64,000 nucleotides of DNA, taken from positions 590 through 64,589 of the forward strand of contig CAIZMB010000106.1 of assembly GCA_903933935.1 (NCBI GenBank). The letters run 5' to 3'. The notes under the pieces are model-generated. The model searched no databases. It saw only the letters and a program-made list of their open reading frames with translations, and was not told where the DNA came from. Made by a program: the position numbers and the translations under genes. Origin of the DNA: an uncultured Cytophagaceae bacterium. GTDB taxonomy: Bacteria > Bacteroidota > Bacteroidia > Cytophagales > Spirosomataceae. Positions 4,319 to 11,963 of the stretch are shown here, one piece after another. The first letter of the stretch is position 1, and every line of letters begins with the position of its first letter.

Positions 4319-6085
4319 ATGAGAAAAAGAATCGAAAAGGACGACATTCGTCGTTCAGAATCCACACGCAAGTTTTCAGGTCCAAGTAACGGGGGCTCAT
4401 CAGACAGAAAACCAACCAAAAATTTTACAGATCGGAGTACCGGAATTAAGCCAACGAGCGATCGGGGCGGAAGATCTGAGTTTCGTTCATCGGAGCCTAG
4501 AGCTTTTGACGGACCCAAAAGAGAATTTTCGGGCGACCGTGAGCGCAAGCCATATAATACGGAACGTAAGCCTTATGCTGGGGATCGACCAAGCAGACCA
4601 TATCAAGGTGGAGATTCAAATTCAGAAAGCCGACCACGTAGGGAATTTGATGGACCCAAAAGAGAATTTTCAGGAGACCGCGCGCGCAAGCCATACAATA
4701 CGGAACGTAAACCTTATTCAGGGGATCGACCAAGCAGACCATATCAAGGAGGCGATTCAAATTCAGAAAGTCGACCACGTAGGGAATTTGATGGACCCAA
4801 AAGAGAATTTTCAGGCGACCGCGCGCGCAAGCCTTATAATAAGCCATACTCATCAGACAGAACACCAAATTCTGGAGAAAGAAATAGAGAGTCAAGACCA
4901 TATCAAGGAGGCGATTCAAATTCAGAAAGCCGCCCTCGTCGGGAATTTGACGGACCCAAAAGAGAATTTTCTGGAAACCGCGAGCGTAAGCCTTTTAACC
5001 CGGAGCGAAAACCATATGCTGGAGATCGACCTAACAGAACTTTTCAAGGAGGTGAATTAAATTCAGATAGCAGACCAAGCAGCGAGTTTGATGGTCCTAA
5101 AAGAGAATTTCCCGAAGACCGCGAACGTAAGCCTTTTCAATCTGATAGGTCAGAGAGCGAGCGTCCAAAAAGAGTATTTGACAGAGAAAAATCGGATGAT
5201 TCATCTAAGGATTTTCGGGAAGCACCTACGGGTAAGTTTTCAAAGAGAGATACGTTTAAGAGCAGAAATAGGTATGAGGAGAGTCCAGCACATACGCCAC
5301 AATACAAATTAGATCGATTTAAAGAAAAAGCGCCTGCTAAAATTCAAAGGAGAATTAGAGAGGTTGAAAGTAAAAGTGACATGGTTCGCTTAAATAGATA
5401 TATCGCGAATGCCGGAATTTGTTCTCGTCGTGATGCTGATAAATTGATCGAGGCGGGTGAAATTAAAGTAAACAACAAAGTAATTACTGAGATGGGCTAT
5501 CAAGTGGCTCCTACGGATATTGTAAAATATGGCAATCGGAAATTGAATCGTGAAAAACCAGTCTATGTTTTATTGAATAAACCTAAAGATTTTTTAACAA
5601 CCACAGAAGACCCGAACGATCGCAAAACGGTTATGGAATTAGTTAAAAATGCAGGTGATGCGCGTATTTATCCAGTAGGAAGATTAGACCGCAATACGAC
5701 GGGTTTAATCTTATTATCAAATGATGGCGAATTAGCTGACCGATTGACTCACCCGTCTCATGAGATTGAAAAAATTTACCAAGCAGAGTTAGATAAGCCT
5801 TTGACCGATGATGATTTCGAAAAAATCAAGGCGGGATTAACCCTAGAGGATGGTGAAATCAAAGTGGATGATTTAGCTAAAGTTACTCCTGATGGTTACG
5901 TGATAGGCGTTAAAATTCACTCAGGGAAAAACCGAATTGTTCGAAGAATATTTGAACATTTAGGTTATGAGGTGACTAAATTAGATCGAACAACCTTTGC
6001 GGGCTTGACTAAAAAAGATTTGCCTAGAGGTCACTGGAGGTATTTGACAGAACGAGAACTCGTTAAACTGAAGTACTTCTTATAA
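4319..6085 (+). CDS. rluB: rRNA pseudouridine synthase, RluB/RsuA family, with a long repetitive N-terminal extension
   Basis: S4 domain (RLNRYIANAGICSRRDAD), catalytic GRLDRNTTG, GKNRIVRR. Confidence 0.88.
   Translation: MRKRIEKDDIRRSESTRKFSGPSNGGSSDRKPTKNFTDRSTGIKPTSDRGGRSEFRSSEPRAFDGPKREFSGDRERKPYNTERKPYAGDRPSRPYQGGDSNSESRPRREFDGPKREFSGDRARKPYNTERKPYSGDRPSRPYQGGDSNSESRPRREFDGPKREFSGDRARKPYNKPYSSDRTPNSGERNRESRPYQGGDSNSESRPRREFDGPKREFSGNRERKPFNPERKPYAGDRPNRTFQGGELNSDSRPSSEFDGPKREFPEDRERKPFQSDRSESERPKRVFDREKSDDSSKDFREAPTGKFSKRDTFKSRNRYEESPAHTPQYKLDRFKEKAPAKIQRRIREVESKSDMVRLNRYIANAGICSRRDADKLIEAGEIKVNNKVITEMGYQVAPTDIVKYGNRKLNREKPVYVLLNKPKDFLTTTEDPNDRKTVMELVKNAGDARIYPVGRLDRNTTGLILLSNDGELADRLTHPSHEIEKIYQAELDKPLTDDDFEKIKAGLTLEDGEIKVDDLAKVTPDGYVIGVKIHSGKNRIVRRIFEHLGYEVTKLDRTTFAGLTKKDLPRGHWRYLTERELVKLKYFL
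4505..5160 (+). repeat. In-frame tandem repeat, ~141 nt (47 aa), five copies, within rluB
   Basis: FDGPKREF units start at 4505, 4646, 4787, 4946 and 5087 (spacings 141, 141, 159, 141). Confidence 0.95.
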
Positions 6086-6136: not shown

Positions 6137-7063
6137 TTAAATATTCATCAATGATTCACGACGTCTCATTTTACCTGCAGGAATACCAAACATCATCTTA
6201 AATCTTCTACAAAAATAAGCGGTGTCTTTATATCCTACTTCAGAACCTATGGCGCGAATGGATTTTTTAGTAGTACGTAAAAGTCCCACAGCAGCTTCCA
6301 TTCTTTGATATTCAATGTAGTCCTGAGGATTAATTCCGGTCAACATTTTAAAATATTGTCCTACATAATCTTCAGATACGTTGGCCACATTGGCTAATAC
6401 TTTATTTGACAAATCTCCACCGATATGATCCTTAATGTAAGCGAAAATGTCAATTAACCTCGGATCTTTAAAATAGGTGCTATTGGTGGCCAGTTGCTCA
6501 ACAAACAATCTATTTTGAATGATATAGCGAATAACTTCAATAACAATTTCCTCCGTTTTGATTTTGATTATCCGACCTTTCCCAATTTCATCCGACATAT
6601 CCTCAAGGAGAATTTCTTTGATGGTTTGAGCCAACTTCTCATCTTTCTTAATTAAAAATGGAGGGATGTCTAGGGATGTAAAGAAATTAACGGAATCAAA
6701 AACCTTGGCTTCAAAAGCGACCATTCCAAATGAATTTTCAAGTCTACCAATGGCGCTTGAATCATTATTTTGGTCAAAGTAAAGCTCACGATGCGTCATA
6801 AACTCTTCATTATTTACCGCTTTAGGTTTTTCTGCATTACCATAAGTAACGCTGATCATTTTGCCACCCGGAATAAAAAGCATATCGCCCTCTTCAACTT
6901 GGGTTTCTTCCTCACCAAATGAAACTTCACCTTTGTACAATATCAAGAGCGAGTTTTCAACATCATAATAATTTTTTATTCGGATAGGTTGTAATATTCT
7001 AATGTTTCTAGCCTTGATAAATTTTACTCCTAAGGACTCAATAATCTTGTTATAATCTTCCAT
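6137..7063 (-). CDS. AraC-family transcriptional regulator; likely start 7063, ORF track 7084
   Basis: N-terminal cupin-like region; C-terminal double HTH (FKMLTGINP, VGYKDTAYFCRRFK). Confidence 0.9.
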   Translation of the reverse strand: MEDYNKIIESLGVKFIKARNIRILQPIRIKNYYDVENSLLILYKGEVSFGEEETQVEEGDMLFIPGGKMISVTYGNAEKPKAVNNEEFMTHRELYFDQNNDSSAIGRLENSFGMVAFEAKVFDSVNFFTSLDIPPFLIKKDEKLAQTIKEILLEDMSDEIGKGRIIKIKTEEIVIEVIRYIIQNRLFVEQLATNSTYFKDPRLIDIFAYIKDHIGGDLSNKVLANVANVSEDYVGQYFKMLTGINPQDYIEYQRMEAAVGLLRTTKKSIRAIGSEVGYKDTAYFCRRFKMMFGIPAGKMRRRESLMNI

Positions 7064-7327
7064 TTTCGTATGTTTTATCGTCAATTATTACGATTTTCTT
7101 AATTTAACTTGGACAAAACTAATAAATCAATGAATAAATCCAAATTATTTTTTAAAAAATAGTCTTTTTTTCTAATATATTTTACCCGATTTTATTGTAA
7201 TATACCTATAAGTATGCTTTTTTGATTCTGTAAAATTTCAAAAAGGAAGTGCCAGGTATTTTTATAATTATTTTTAGGATACCCATATTTTTAATTTAAA
7301 ATAAATAATTAGCTCATAATTTATCCG

Positions 7328-7335
7328 TAAATTTG
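7328..7335 (+). promoter_or_regulatory. -7 promoter element upstream of mreB
   Basis: TAAATTTG, 50 nt before the ATG. Confidence 0.6.
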
Positions 7336-7384
7336 AAACTTGTGGATTTACAATCCAGCTTAAATCCAATAATTATACTAAATC

Positions 7385-8410
7385 ATGGGATTATTTAATT
7401 TTCTTACGAAGGATATCGCGATTGACTTAGGTACTGCAAATACCTTAATCATTCATAAGGATCAGGTGGTGGTAGATGAACCATCTATTATTGCATTAGA
7501 CAGAAACACAAATAAAGTGTTGGCTGTTGGTCGACAAGCGATGATGATGCATGAAAAAACCAATGACAATATTAAGACGATTCGGCCTTTGAAGGATGGT
7601 GTCATTGCGGATTTTACAGCTGCTGAATTAATGATGCGCGGATTGATCAAGATGATGGATAAGGGGAATTCGTTTTTTTCTCCAGCTTTACGGATGGTTA
7701 TTTGTATTCCTTCTGGGATTACAGAAGTTGAAAAAAGAGCGGTAAAGGATTCGGCTGAGCATGCGGGCGCGCGTGAAGTTTATATGGTGCATGAGCCAAT
7801 TGCTGCCGCGATTGGAATTGGAATTGACATTGAACAACCCAATGGATCACTTGTGGTTGATATAGGTGGAGGTACCACAGAGGTTGCGATTATTTCATTG
7901 AGTGGAATTGTTGTTGAAAACTCAATTCGTGTGGCTGGAGATGAATTTACGAGAGATATAAAAGATTATTTATTGCGGGAGCATAAATTAGTCATTGGAG
8001 AAAGGTCCGCTGAGCAGATTAAAATTCAGGTGGGTGCGGCATTGCCAGAATTAGAAAATGCACCACCTGATTTTGAGATTAGGGGTCGTGATCAAATGAC
8101 TGGTATTCCAAAGGAGATTTTAATTAATTATTCTGAAATAGCATATGCATTGGATAGTTCAATCACGAAGATTGAAGTAGCTATTATGGAAACTTTACAA
8201 AGAGCTCCTGCCGAATTATCGGGGGATATTTTTCATAATGGAATTCATTTAGCCGGTGGGGGTGCCATGTTACATGGTTTGGATAAGAGAATTGAGAAGA
8301 AAACCCAATTGAAAGTGCATGTGGCGGATGATCCTTTAAAGGCTGTTGTACGCGGTACGGGTGAAATTCTTAAAAATCTTGACAAGTATAGAGCGGTTTT
8401 AATTACTTAA
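7385..8410 (+). CDS. mreB: Rod shape-determining protein MreB
   Basis: IAIDLGTANT, VDIGGGTT, LAGGGA. Confidence 0.97.
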   Translation: MGLFNFLTKDIAIDLGTANTLIIHKDQVVVDEPSIIALDRNTNKVLAVGRQAMMMHEKTNDNIKTIRPLKDGVIADFTAAELMMRGLIKMMDKGNSFFSPALRMVICIPSGITEVEKRAVKDSAEHAGAREVYMVHEPIAAAIGIGIDIEQPNGSLVVDIGGGTTEVAIISLSGIVVENSIRVAGDEFTRDIKDYLLREHKLVIGERSAEQIKIQVGAALPELENAPPDFEIRGRDQMTGIPKEILINYSEIAYALDSSITKIEVAIMETLQRAPAELSGDIFHNGIHLAGGGAMLHGLDKRIEKKTQLKVHVADDPLKAVVRGTGEILKNLDKYRAVLIT

Positions 8411-8437
8411 TTTCTTCCTTTAAATTTTAGTTTTGGC

Positions 8438-9277
8438 ATGAATCAATTGTTTCAATTCCTTATTCGACAAAGGATTATTCTTTTGTTTGTTCTATTGGAG
8501 TTGATTAATGTTTGGTCTATTTTCAAATACGATGATTTTCAACATGTCATTTATTTGAACACCACAAATCGCTGGGCTGCTTCCTTATTAGCTACAAGTC
8601 GAGAAATAAAAACCTATCATCATTTGGGGGAAGTTAATCAGGAGCTCGCTTTAGAAAATACTCGATTAAGGCAGGAGATTTTCAAATTAAATTCCATAAA
8701 GCAGCCAGAAAGCAAAGTTCCTTATTTTGTTAGCGCTGCCATGTTAAATCGGTATACGCCGGTGGCAAGTAAGGTGATCGATCAAAGTACTCAAATGTCG
8801 CAGAATTATTTGACCATAGACAAAGGTTTAATGGATGGAATCAAGCCGGGTATGGCGGTAATTTCGTCCACTGGCGTGGTTGGGAAGGTAATGTCTTGTA
8901 CATCAAATTTATCTTTAGTGGTCTCGGTATTGCACATTGAAAATAATGTTTCGGCAAAAATTAAATCTACTGGTGAATTAGGGTACATTAAATGGCCTGG
9001 TATTCAAACAGAAGTGGTGGAAATGATGGATGTTTCCAAATATAAAAAGGTAATGAAGGGTGATACCATTGTTACTTCAGATTACAATGTGGTGTTTCCT
9101 CCTAATATTCCAATTGGCATTGTCGCAAAAGTTGGTCTCGAAAAAGATGAAACATTTCATCAAATTAAAGTGATGTTGTTAACCAATTTCTCGACGTTAA
9201 AGTATGTGTATGTGATCAAAAATCACCTGTTGGACCAACAATTAAAGTTGGAAACTTTAAAACCTAAGCCTGAATAA
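8438..9277 (+). CDS. mreC: Rod shape-determining protein MreC
   Basis: N-terminal TM, coiled coil, IDKG..GI..GMAV...GVVG, GDTIVTS...FP..IPIG; follows mreB. Confidence 0.92.
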   Translation: MNQLFQFLIRQRIILLFVLLELINVWSIFKYDDFQHVIYLNTTNRWAASLLATSREIKTYHHLGEVNQELALENTRLRQEIFKLNSIKQPESKVPYFVSAAMLNRYTPVASKVIDQSTQMSQNYLTIDKGLMDGIKPGMAVISSTGVVGKVMSCTSNLSLVVSVLHIENNVSAKIKSTGELGYIKWPGIQTEVVEMMDVSKYKKVMKGDTIVTSDYNVVFPPNIPIGIVAKVGLEKDETFHQIKVMLLTNFSTLKYVYVIKNHLLDQQLKLETLKPKPE

Positions 9278-9278
9278 T

Positions 9279-9788
9279 ATGGGTAATTCATTTCAAATTA
9301 AATGGATTTTTATTGTTTTATTTAGCCTTGTTACACAGGTTTTTATTTTACGAGATGTGGCGTTAGCTAACGTGGCCTTTTGTTTTATTTATCTTTGGAT
9401 CATTTTAAAAGCTCCTATTCATACGCCATTATTTTATTTAATTATTGGCGGTTTTATTATAGGCTGGGTCGTAGATATATTTTATAATACGTATGGGATT
9501 CATTCCTTAGCCACCGTATTTATTGCGTTTTTAAGACCAGTATTCTTTAAAGTGCTAACACCGGTGAATGGCTATGACGAGCGATCTAGTGTTTCACTGA
9601 GTGAAATGAAAGCTTTATGGTTCTTCCCATACATTTTTGTTATGCTTTTCTCACACCACCTGATCTTATTTCTAGTGGAATCTGCCGATGCTACTTTATT
9701 GATGTACAGTCTACTCAGAGCTTTCGCCAGTGCTATTTTAGGCACATTGGTTTTCGGAATGCTTGAATTATTCAATCAAAAAAACTAG
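9279..9788 (+). CDS. mreD: Rod shape-determining protein MreD
   Basis: Polytopic membrane protein with DIFYNTYGIHS motif; follows mreC. Confidence 0.85.
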   Translation: MGNSFQIKWIFIVLFSLVTQVFILRDVALANVAFCFIYLWIILKAPIHTPLFYLIIGGFIIGWVVDIFYNTYGIHSLATVFIAFLRPVFFKVLTPVNGYDERSSVSLSEMKALWFFPYIFVMLFSHHLILFLVESADATLLMYSLLRAFASAILGTLVFGMLELFNQKN

Positions 9789-9861
9789 GTCTTTTTGTCA
9801 CGTTGATTTTTGGCTTCATAATTGCAATTAGGGTTGTTTCGTAAATTTTACGAATAAATTC

Positions 9862-10455
9862 ATGAATATGGAAGTTGAGGTAAAAGACAAAATTTATTCT
9901 TTAGGTAATGCGGGGCGTATTTTTGAAAAAGAATTTATGCCACACATGGATGCCATGTATAATTTCGCTCTTAAGTTGACGGCCGACGAAGACGATGCTC
10001 AAGACCTTGTTCAGGATACTTGTTTAAAAGCATATCGTTTTATAAATTCTTTTGAACCTGGTACTTACGCGAAAGCCTGGTTATTCAGGATTTTGAAAAA
10101 TAATTTCATTAACGACTATCGAAAAAAATCTAGAGGCCCATCTAAAGTAGAATTTGAATGGGTGGAACAGTCAATTTCAGGGGAAGACGAAGCGGCAGAA
10201 CCCGCATATTTTGCTGATTTACAAGCTGAAACAGTTAATGACATGCTGGGTGACGAAATCACTGCCGCACTCCAATCTCTCCCAGTTGATTTTCGAATGA
10301 TTATTATTTTATGTGATTTGGAGGAGTTTAGTTACGAAGAGATGGCAAAAATTTTAGATATACCCATTGGCACAGTAAGATCCCGTTTGCATCGTGCTAG
10401 GGCTTTGCTTAAAACCAAATTAGTTAATTACGCTAAAAGCAAGGGGTATAACTGA
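9862..10455 (+). CDS. ECF RNA polymerase sigma factor, SigR/SigH (ECF12)-like
   Basis: Region 2 DAQDLVQDT..KA..F..FEPGT..KAWLFRIL.N.FIN.YRK; region 4 SYEEMAKILDIPIGTVRSRLHRAR. Confidence 0.9.
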   Translation: MNMEVEVKDKIYSLGNAGRIFEKEFMPHMDAMYNFALKLTADEDDAQDLVQDTCLKAYRFINSFEPGTYAKAWLFRILKNNFINDYRKKSRGPSKVEFEWVEQSISGEDEAAEPAYFADLQAETVNDMLGDEITAALQSLPVDFRMIIILCDLEEFSYEEMAKILDIPIGTVRSRLHRARALLKTKLVNYAKSKGYN

Positions 10456-10475
10456 CAACGTGTCATTAAATTCTG

Positions 10476-10501
10476 GGAACTAATTTTCCGACTGAGGTGT
10501 T
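10476..10501 (+). promoter_or_regulatory. Candidate ECF promoter GGAAC-N18-GTT upstream of the anti-sigma gene
   Basis: GGAAC at 10476-10480, 18-nt spacer, GTT at 10499-10501, in the sigma/anti-sigma intergenic gap. Confidence 0.55.
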
Positions 10502-10528
10502 AAAAAAATTGAATTAAGGTGAAATAAA

Positions 10529-10801
10529 ATGAAAATGAACTGTGAGCACCATCAGGATTGCATGCAATTGATTCAAAAGATTTTGGATGGCGAAGCAAGT
10601 GTAGCTGAAAAAGAAGCGTTTTATGCCAACAAAGATTTGTGTATGCCTTGTCAGAAGGGCTATGAATTAGAATTATCGCTCAAAGAAAACTTAAAATCTA
10701 AATGTCAATTATCCTGTCCGGATCAAATCATTCATAAGATTAGATCAAAACTTTTTTTGCTTTTAATCCTAATTTCAATTCTTATTCCCTTATTTTGCTA
10801 G
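10529..10801 (+). CDS. Cys-rich RsrA/RshA-like (zf-HC2-type) anti-sigma factor
   Basis: Directly after the ECF gene; C..L...LDGE....E......C..C pattern; 7 Cys. Confidence 0.75.
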   Translation: MKMNCEHHQDCMQLIQKILDGEASVAEKEAFYANKDLCMPCQKGYELELSLKENLKSKCQLSCPDQIIHKIRSKLFLLLILISILIPLFC

Positions 10802-10822
10802 CTTATATAAAGTAAAATATTT

Positions 10823-11389
10823 TTGGAAGGTAAATTAATTATTTTTTCGGCCCCTTCGGGATCAGGCAAAACAACTATCGTCAAGGAATTATTGAAAAAT
10901 AATTCCAATCTCGGTTTTTCTATTTCAGCATGTACACGAGATAAAAGAGGCCGACTAGAAGAAAATGGTCAAGATTATTATTTTCTTACGCCAGATGATT
11001 TTAGAGAAAAGATCAATGAAGGTGCTTTTGTCGAGTGGGAAGAAGTGTATTCCGGAGCCTATTACGGCACACTGAAATCAGAGATTGAGCGCATTTGGGC
11101 CAGCGGAAAGCATGTAATTTTTGATGTGGACGTTAAGGGCGGGCTCGCGTTAAAAAAGTATTATGGAGATAAGGCTTTAGCCATCTTTGTTAAAGTTCCG
11201 TCATTAGAGATTTTAGAAGAAAGGCTGCGTTCTAGAGGTACTGAAACAGAAGAATCGCTTTCTAAACGTATTTTTAAAATGAAGTTTGAATGGTCATTTC
11301 AAGACAAATTTGATGTAATTCTGATCAATGATACATTAGATTTGGCTATACAAAAGGCACAGAAATTGTTCACCCAATTCACAAGCTAA
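10823..11389 (+). CDS. gmk: Guanylate kinase (TTG start)
   Basis: [25 protein letters not shown]. Confidence 0.96.
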
Positions 11390-11390
11390 C

Positions 11391-11963
11391 ATGAAAGTCG
11401 GATTGTTTTTTGGCTCTTTTAATCCTATTCATCATGGGCACTTAATTATTGCTCAGGCTGCATTAAATCAAACCGCATTGGATCAAATTTGGTTTGTTGT
11501 TTCCCCACAAAATCCGCATAAAAAAAGCAAAAATCTATTGCATGAATTTGACCGACTGGATTTAGTTGAAAGAGCGATTACTGATAATTTTGCTTTTAAA
11601 TCCTGCGATATTGAGTTTAGCTTATCAAAGCCATCTTATACAATAGATACGTTAATCCACTTGACTGAGCGCCACCCGACGAAAGAATTTTCATTGATTT
11701 TGGGTGGGGATAACCTTGAACAGTTTAAAAGTTGGAAAAATTTTGATAAGATACTTGATTATTTTACGCTCTACGTATATCCACGTGGTGAAATAAATAC
11801 ATCTGATTTATGGCAACATAAAAGTGTTAACAAGATTGATGCGCCTATTTTACATATTTCTGCTACCTATATTAGATCTTGCATCCAAAATGGCAAGTCT
11901 ATTAAATATCTAGTTCCTGATCAAGTAGAGGCTTTGATCAATCAGAAAAATTTTTACCTTTAG
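11391..11963 (+). CDS. nadD: Nicotinate-nucleotide adenylyltransferase
   Basis: GSFNPIHHGH, SYTIDT, ISATYIR. Confidence 0.95.
   Translation: MKVGLFFGSFNPIHHGHLIIAQAALNQTALDQIWFVVSPQNPHKKSKNLLHEFDRLDLVERAITDNFAFKSCDIEFSLSKPSYTIDTLIHLTERHPTKEFSLILGGDNLEQFKSWKNFDKILDYFTLYVYPRGEINTSDLWQHKSVNKIDAPILHISATYIRSCIQNGKSIKYLVPDQVEALINQKNFYL

Follow-up and report, generated by a model that had tools for sequence, protein, structure and literature searches.

In the closest described relatives of the two proteins considered here, the SigR-RsrA pair of Streptomyces coelicolor and the SigH-RshA pair of Mycobacterium tuberculosis (extracytoplasmic function (ECF) group ECF12; protein families TIGR02947 and TIGR03988), the sigma factor genes sigR and sigH are autoregulated. 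In Corynebacterium glutamicum, sigH and rshA are cotranscribed from four housekeeping promoters, sigH is not autoregulated, and a SigH-dependent promoter that precedes rshA drives this gene alone, which was read as ensuring an excess of the anti-sigma factor and a fast shut-down of the response (PMC3489674, Busche et al. 2012). In Bacteroides thetaiotaomicron, the proteins named SigR-1 and SigH-1 are members of the family of Porphyromonas gingivalis SigH and are classified in ECF114, not in ECF12. Here we describe a locus on a 64,000-nucleotide (nt) stretch of DNA from an uncultured Cytophagaceae bacterium (contig CAIZMB010000106.1; the whole stretch is referred to below as the window), in which a SigH/SigR-like sigma factor gene is followed by a gene for an RsrA-like anti-sigma factor, and the gap between them holds a candidate promoter of the SigH type, GGAAC-N18-GTT. 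Proteins of the window are 96-98% identical to those of freshwater Cytophagaceae metagenome-assembled genomes and about 80% identical to those of Aquirufa. The locus consists of the following elements.

9862-10455, plus strand: gene for a SigH/SigR-like ECF sigma factor of 197 amino acids (Pfam, NCBIfam and structure-relative matches)
10476-10501, plus strand: candidate ECF (SigH-type) promoter, with the -35 box GGAAC at 10476-10480, an 18-nt spacer and the -10 box GTT at 10499-10501 (sequence and conservation)
10529-10801, plus strand: gene for an anti-sigma factor of 90 amino acids, an RsrA-like variant of the zinc-binding anti-sigma (ZAS) type (TIGR03988, orthologue profile)
10823-11389, plus strand: gmk, with a TTG start (TIGR03263, 193 bits, above the cut-off)
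11391-11963, plus strand: nadD (TIGR00482, 167 bits, above the cut-off)

The sigma factor gene stops at 10455 and the ATG of the anti-sigma gene begins at 10529. Within these 73 nt the motif ends 27 nt (GTT to ATG) ahead of the ATG, and all of its coordinates are as given in the preliminary description of this DNA. Transcription from it would be predicted to start at about 10507-10511, near 10510 by the register of M. tuberculosis SigH, and thus about 19 nt before the ATG. The frequency of the motif in the window is at the level of chance: GGAAY-N17/18-GTT occurs 7 times in the 64 kb with 9.4 matches expected, and the exact form once with 1.36 expected, so there is no window-wide enrichment and the motif count alone is no proof. 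By our own arithmetic from the window statistics, a match on the right strand would arise by chance in this 73-nt gap with a probability of about 0.004. What supports the motif is its position and conservation, not its count in the window. The gap gave no Rfam match, its fold had a z-score of +0.8, and it contained no terminator-like site. A scan for E. coli-type promoters is not meaningful for Bacteroidota.

To examine whether the motif is conserved in orthologous gaps, we compared 80 orthologous loci, all from Cytophagales, in 79 of which the anti-sigma gene follows the sigma gene with a real gap. The sigma-to-anti-sigma interval was searched on the coding strand for GAA(C/T) or AAAC followed after 18-19 nt by GTT, and composition-matched shuffles served as the control. 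The motif was present in 61 of the 79 gaps against a shuffle mean of 4.7, and its strict GAAY form in 52 of the 79 against a mean of 2.9; since the loci are phylogenetically related, these counts do not represent independent events. In an equal stretch upstream of the sigma gene, the motif occurred in 4 of 78 loci (strict form, 2 of 78). The consensus of the family reads (G/T)GAACT(T/A)TT - N - (T/G)GTT(A), with a spacer of 18 nt in 22 instances and of 19 nt in 29, and the first G of GGAAC is weakly conserved (G in 24 of 51 instances). The 19 aligned loci of the Aquirufa clade all have GAACT and TGTT unchanged, with a spacer that varies at most of its positions, and Arcicella and Flectobacillus carry GGAAT-N18-GTT. 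Even between genera with anti-sigma proteins just 35-50% identical the boxes are kept, whereas the spacers and flanks diverge. The same is seen among strain variants in metatranscriptomes, where changes at 10488, 10492 and 10497 fall in the spacer and both boxes are kept; a further, loose-end variant, GGGGAACTAATTTTATAAAGTAGGTGTT, has both boxes intact as well. A weight matrix made from the orthologous sites scored the window site at 20.1 bits, a value that is partly circular as the matrix includes an instance (locus L002) identical to that site; the next best match in the 64 kb had 13.5 bits, which is within the range of the shuffles. Taken together, position and conservation suggest that the gap motif is, with high probability, a functional ECF-type promoter.

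If the boxes were not a promoter, they could be the site of a regulator, an element of a housekeeping promoter or sequence retained through kinship of the loci. The relatedness of the loci speaks for such a reading, and so does the quasi-palindromic site of Spirosoma, GAAC-N19-GTTC, with 21 of the gaps matching on the reverse strand too. Moreover, in the Aquirufa clade an invariant palindrome adjoins the boxes:

10453-10465, no strand assigned: palindrome TGACA-ACG-TGTCA, which overlaps the stop codon of the sigma gene; the -35 box follows 10 nt downstream

All 19 aligned loci of this clade share CTGACA-N3-TGTCA without change; the palindrome is present in a single copy in the window, and it forms no stable RNA hairpin. 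However, the promoter-like site loses its palindromic character outside Spirosoma, and it is unlike the TTG/TAnnTTTG pattern of a housekeeping promoter. The boxes also stay fixed while their surroundings change between genera, and about 5% in the shuffles and the upstream control stands against 77% in the gaps. We regard a non-promoter function of the boxes as very improbable. As for the palindrome, a dimeric regulator may use it as an operator to control the internal promoter.

Outside the gap, the family matrix matched the 80 loci just within genes of Cyclobacteriaceae, apart from a small number of scattered sites. In the Cyclobacteriaceae (L057, L058, L066, L071-L073, L075 and L079; about 2788-2833) a match of 15-17.5 bits is located within the sigma gene, some 290 nt past the start codon, with the sequence (T/G)GAAACTTATTA(C/T)AACTCnGAT(G/A)ATGTT, and GGAAC-N19-GTT is found in Leadbetterella and Cecembia at about 50 nt ahead of the sigma stop codon. 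All these in-gene sites may simply be conserved coding sequence; the one of the Cyclobacteriaceae could instead be an equivalent of the promoter. Spirosoma, Fibrella and Larkinella (L029-L039, L053, L062-L064 and related loci) have a second conserved element in the gap just before the anti-sigma gene, TTGGAATAAAT(A/T)AAATTTTTCCAATG, which contains an inverted repeat with the arms TTGGAA and TTCCAA and probably ends in the ATG of an N-terminally extended anti-sigma factor.

The region ahead of the sigma gene presents a different picture. GGAAY-N17/18-GTT was found neither in the 73 nt between the upstream open reading frame and the sigma gene (9789-9861) nor anywhere in 7000-9861. The absence of such a motif ahead of the sigma gene, as noted before, thus holds in the window, and in the family just 2-4 of 78 loci depart from it. 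Two other elements occupy this region.

9795-9824, plus strand: candidate promoter of the sigma gene of the Bacteroidota sigma-A type, with TTG at 9795-9797, 19 nt and CATAATTG at 9817-9824
9840-9852, plus strand: inverted repeat CGTAAATTTTACG, presumably part of the 5' leader of the sigma mRNA; relatives carry others at the same place

In the 19 loci of the Aquirufa clade the conserved columns upstream of the sigma gene read TTTGtCA, then tTtttGG..t...A.TTG. The consensus of the -7 box of Bacteroidota housekeeping promoters is TAnnTTTG (PMC9723704), and TTG-N19-CATAATTG approximates the -33/-7 pattern of these promoters. This supports the earlier suggestion that the sigma gene could be transcribed by the housekeeping sigma factor, the evidence being a conserved upstream sequence. 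For the leader repeat of the window, RNAfold gave a folding energy of -9.4 kcal/mol and a z-score of -2.45; across 18 loci the z-scores average -1.4. Relatives (L003-L026) have inverted repeats of their own before the sigma ATG (GCACAT..ATGTGC, CACAAAAA..TTTTTGTG, GGCGGT..ACCGCC); structure is kept while the sequence changes, and this looks like a hairpin in the 5' leader of the sigma mRNA. Many gene calls start the sigma gene at an ATG two codons downstream, at 9868.

The sigma factor has the two-domain architecture of ECF proteins, with matches to Pfam Sigma70_r2 (2e-16) and Sigma70_r4_2 (4e-17) and without region 3 or 1. Its orthologues across Cytophagales are 63-98% identical. TIGR02947 (SigH_actino) was the best of 87 models at 156.7 bits, followed by one at 132.5 bits, and the best solved relative was M. 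tuberculosis SigH (5zx2_F, 1.2e-39; SigE, 2e-27), in agreement with the likeness to SigH and SigR proposed from the sequence. Bacteroidota do have ECF sigma factors tied to oxidative stress and thioredoxins, those of ECF114, whose SigR and SigH names are borrowed. The window sigma scored 97 bits with the PG0214-type Bacteroidota model, below the 157 bits obtained with the actinobacterial SigH model; ECF114 itself was compared by description only. The text of the ECF classification paper (PMC7826278) says nothing about Bacteroidota in ECF12.

In the open complex of M. tuberculosis SigH, the -35 element GGAACA occupies positions -34 to -29 and GTT positions -11 to -9, and the spacing of the window motif, GGAAC-N18-GTT, is identical to that of this scaffold. 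By our own mapping of the alignment of the two sigma factors onto the residues named in the open-complex paper, 15 of the 20 named contact residues are identical in the window protein. These include the -10 contacts F72, T76, W81, I85, N88, I91, N92 and Y94 (M. tuberculosis SigH numbering), the base-specific -35 contacts S182 and R186, and the backbone contacts Y166, T179, R183, H185 and R188; the changes are N77Y, R73E, Q98S, M181R and K167E. These matches argue for the adjacent sigma factor as the likely reader of the gap motif. A true ECF-type promoter could also be read by another ECF sigma factor, in which case the unit would be cross-regulated and not self-limiting. Promoters with AAC at -35 and GTT or CGT at -10 are common to many ECF groups, an ECF motif of the CGT type in Flavobacterium was not assignable to a single sigma factor (PMC9723704), and Bacteroidetes have about 22 ECF sigma factors per genome. 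In addition, the first G of GGAAC is the base read by R186 in SigH and is the weakly conserved one mentioned above. At the same time, the motif travels with this particular sigma/anti-sigma pair across several Cytophagales families, and its spacing and boxes fit the closest characterised relatives of this sigma factor, most of whose contact residues are kept. A foreign reader is therefore unlikely in our view; because AAC/GTT-like promoters are so widely used, the adjacent sigma factor is the parsimonious reader and not a proven one.

The anti-sigma protein on its own had no Pfam match and a single NCBIfam match, to TIGR03988 (antisig_RsrA), at 32.1 bits. A profile of 27 orthologues matched RsrA (5frf) at 7e-9 and RsiW at 3e-5, in line with the proposal that the partner is RsrA-like, and zf-HC2 was matched by 7 of the 27 family members. 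The AlphaFold model has four helices (mean confidence score, pLDDT, 80), and the top Foldseek matches were RsiW, MucA, RslA and PupR, all of them anti-sigma domains and all weak (E 0.25-5). Every orthologue examined has the four cysteines C5, C11, C38 and C41 (C-x5-C...C-x2-C); C11, C38 and C41 align with C11, C41 and C44 of RsrA, and C5 is additional. At the position of the RsrA zinc ligand histidine the orthologues mostly have N; Cyclobacteriaceae have K there and a small number of proteins H, while C-x2-C is invariant. A Cys4 metal site that uses C5 would be a reasonable inference from this pattern, and redox sensing by the protein is a reasonable guess.

Residues 74-90 of the anti-sigma factor (10748-10798) form a hydrophobic C-terminal tail, LFLLLILISILIPLFC, present in the Aquirufa clade only. 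The proteins of Emticicia and Leadbetterella have different hydrophobic tails, and those of Spirosoma and Algoriphagus end without one; judged by these tails, some lineages apparently have a membrane-anchored form of the family and others a soluble one. Among the named matches of the profile search there were Cytophagales only, and the single-sequence searches returned close relatives only. Some Cytophagales members are already annotated as 'mycothiol system anti-sigma-R factor' or 'TIGR02949 family'; to our knowledge, no mycothiol is known in Bacteroidota. CHU_0600 of Cytophaga hutchinsonii was listed as an RsrA homologue in 2011, and our search of the literature on this gene found nothing beyond that listing.

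The motif had been described as driving only the anti-sigma gene, and this is where the preliminary description needs to be amended. The gmk gene begins 21 nt past the anti-sigma stop codon and nadD 1 nt past gmk, no terminator-like site was found in 10455-11950, and the order sigma, anti-sigma, gmk (and nadD) is present in each of the 78 loci long enough to show it. Public RNA runs are in agreement with this, in the form of assembled metatranscriptome contigs that have no 5' ends and in which DNA carry-over is possible. Contigs join the 3' end of the sigma gene, the gap, the anti-sigma gene and the start of gmk, and cross the anti-sigma/gmk junction.

10252 to beyond 10900: RNA contig X7
10369-10576 and 10552-10848: RNA contigs X5
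10267-10572: RNA contig X6
10474-10848: RNA contig X4

In Runella, one contig of 5.6-6.8 kb spans the whole unit. At face value, RNA contigs that run from sigma through gmk imply that the anti-sigma gene is also read from upstream and that a transcript starting in the gap continues into gmk; gmk and nadD probably belong to one transcription unit with the anti-sigma gene. In about 44 of the 78 loci gmk starts 3-23 nt past the anti-sigma stop codon, usually with TTG or GTG, which suggests translational plus transcriptional coupling of this essential gene to the anti-sigma gene.

The fixed gene order, the short distance to gmk, the lack of a terminator between anti-sigma and gmk and the contigs crossing the junction could also be taken to mean that the internal promoter serves mainly the essential gmk and nadD genes, the unit being a stress-boosted nucleotide and NAD operon in which the rise of the anti-sigma factor is a by-product. 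However, in Spirosoma, Fibrella and Arcicella the gap between anti-sigma and gmk widens to 60-260 nt and the motif still stands ahead of the anti-sigma gene. Constitutive expression, as essential genes require it, is already ensured by read-through from the housekeeping promoter. We consider it improbable that supplying gmk and nadD is the main purpose, and such a role is compatible with the feedback on the sigma factor that we favour.

The explanation that we favour as a whole, and hold to be somewhat more probable than not, is that sigma, anti-sigma, gmk and nadD of this Aquirufa-related freshwater member of the Cytophagales form an operon-like unit, in which a sigma factor that is not autoregulated has a promoter of its own type ahead of its inhibitor, gmk and nadD. 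The sigma gene would be transcribed from the conserved housekeeping-type promoter just past the gene in the mreD position, perhaps with some read-through from mreBCD and with no positive autoregulation, and its product would be held inactive by the neighbouring cysteine-rich RsrA-like anti-sigma factor. Inactivation of the latter, presumably via thiol oxidation of the Cys4 metal site, would free the sigma factor to direct RNA polymerase to its regulon, including GGAAC-N18-GTT in the gap. The internal promoter would then raise the synthesis of the inhibitor and not that of the sigma factor, and the expected outcome would be negative feedback and a fast shut-off, as for PrshA of C. glutamicum; its transcript would most likely also carry gmk and nadD. 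We infer all three of the elements on which this depends, namely the motif as an active promoter, the adjacent sigma factor as its reader and redox as the signal.

Several observations weigh against this explanation. The motif is missing from the gap in 18 of the 79 loci: Emticicia, Leadbetterella and Cyclobacteriaceae lack it there, and in Runella GAACTTTTT is kept but TTT replaces GTT. Both window proteins score under the cut-offs of their families (156.7 bits against a curated cut-off of 251.55 for TIGR02947; 32.1 bits against 62.5 for TIGR03988). In the anti-sigma factor N34 replaces the zinc ligand H37 of RsrA, so the protein has N34-x3-C38-x2-C41 in place of H-x3-C-x2-C. The residues flanking the RsrA cysteines were identified as redox determinants (E39, E40, L45 and E46; Jung et al.), and the corresponding positions hold D36, L37, Q42 and K43. 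Use of AAC/GTT-like promoters by many ECF sigma factors counts here as well. The family matrix gave no second site above shuffle level in the 64 kb, and a thioredoxin-like CxPC gene, which could have been inspected for an upstream site, is absent from the window. Finally, the metatranscriptome contigs show RNA through the gap and neither reveal nor exclude an internal start.

Compared with the autoregulated SigR-RsrA and SigH-RshA systems, the locus resembles them in the promoter consensus GGAAY-N18-GTT, in most DNA-contact residues of the sigma factor and in a small anti-sigma protein that aligns with three RsrA cysteines. It differs in the lack of the motif upstream of the sigma gene and, on the side of the anti-sigma factor, in the change of H37 to N34, the extra invariant C5, the mostly changed redox determinants and the membrane tail of the Aquirufa clade. 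The likeness to C. glutamicum lies in the wiring: a sigma gene with a housekeeping-type box and no cognate promoter upstream (in the window, a reading of the sequence), cotranscription of sigma and anti-sigma, and a promoter of the sigma factor's own type (GGAA-N-GTT) past the sigma start and before the anti-sigma gene. The novelty that the preliminary description had implied for this wiring does not hold, as the same design was shown experimentally in C. glutamicum (PMC3489674). C. glutamicum belongs to Actinomycetota and the window to Bacteroidota, and the wiring was established there by experiment and read here from sequence. The rshA transcript is monocistronic, whereas gmk and nadD follow in the window without a terminator, and RshA has retained the canonical cysteines and histidine of ZAS proteins, in contrast to N34 of the window protein. 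Because this wiring has a proven precedent in C. glutamicum, the arrangement is a good prediction and not a new principle.

Very few ECF promoters of Bacteroidota have been assigned to their sigma factors, in a phylum with about 20 ECF sigma factors per genome and an unusual housekeeping promoter, and this locus offers a well-conserved and easily testable candidate pair of sigma factor and promoter. It would extend a wiring of constitutive sigma factor and inducible inhibitor that has so far been shown only in Corynebacterium, and under such a wiring the stress response is expected to be pulse-like and self-limiting. The constant association with gmk and nadD provides a concrete hypothesis on what the response protects, and no general principle is changed by it. 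A more far-reaching possibility, which we regard as doubtful, is that Cytophagales possess a one-per-genome SigH-like module that departs from the actinobacterial one, with a Cys4 anti-sigma factor that lacks the histidine and has a membrane tail in some clades, with a sigma factor that is never autoregulated and with a sigma-dependent internal promoter hard-wired to the genes of guanylate kinase (gmk) and NaMN adenylyltransferase (nadD). If this were true, the synthesis of GDP/GTP and NAD would increase, along with the inhibitor, as a direct response to thiol or oxidative stress, and the palindrome would add a second regulator.

The neighbourhood of the unit is also partly conserved. The order mreB, mreC and an open reading frame in the mreD position ahead of the sigma gene is found in 50 of the 80 loci, and in the window comEC lies past nadD.

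7385-8410, plus strand: mreB (Pfam MreB_Mbl, 7e-124)
8438-9277, plus strand: mreC (Pfam MreC, 2e-37)
9279-9788, plus strand: open reading frame for a membrane protein of 169 amino acids in the position of mreD, for which no family match was found

A pseudouridine synthase gene at 4319-6085 on the plus strand encodes S4 and PseudoU_synth_2 domains at residues 356-547 and an N-terminal extension of about 340 low-complexity residues. Part of this extension is encoded by a tandem repeat of 141 nt at 4505-4841, present in 2.4 copies with 92% matching.

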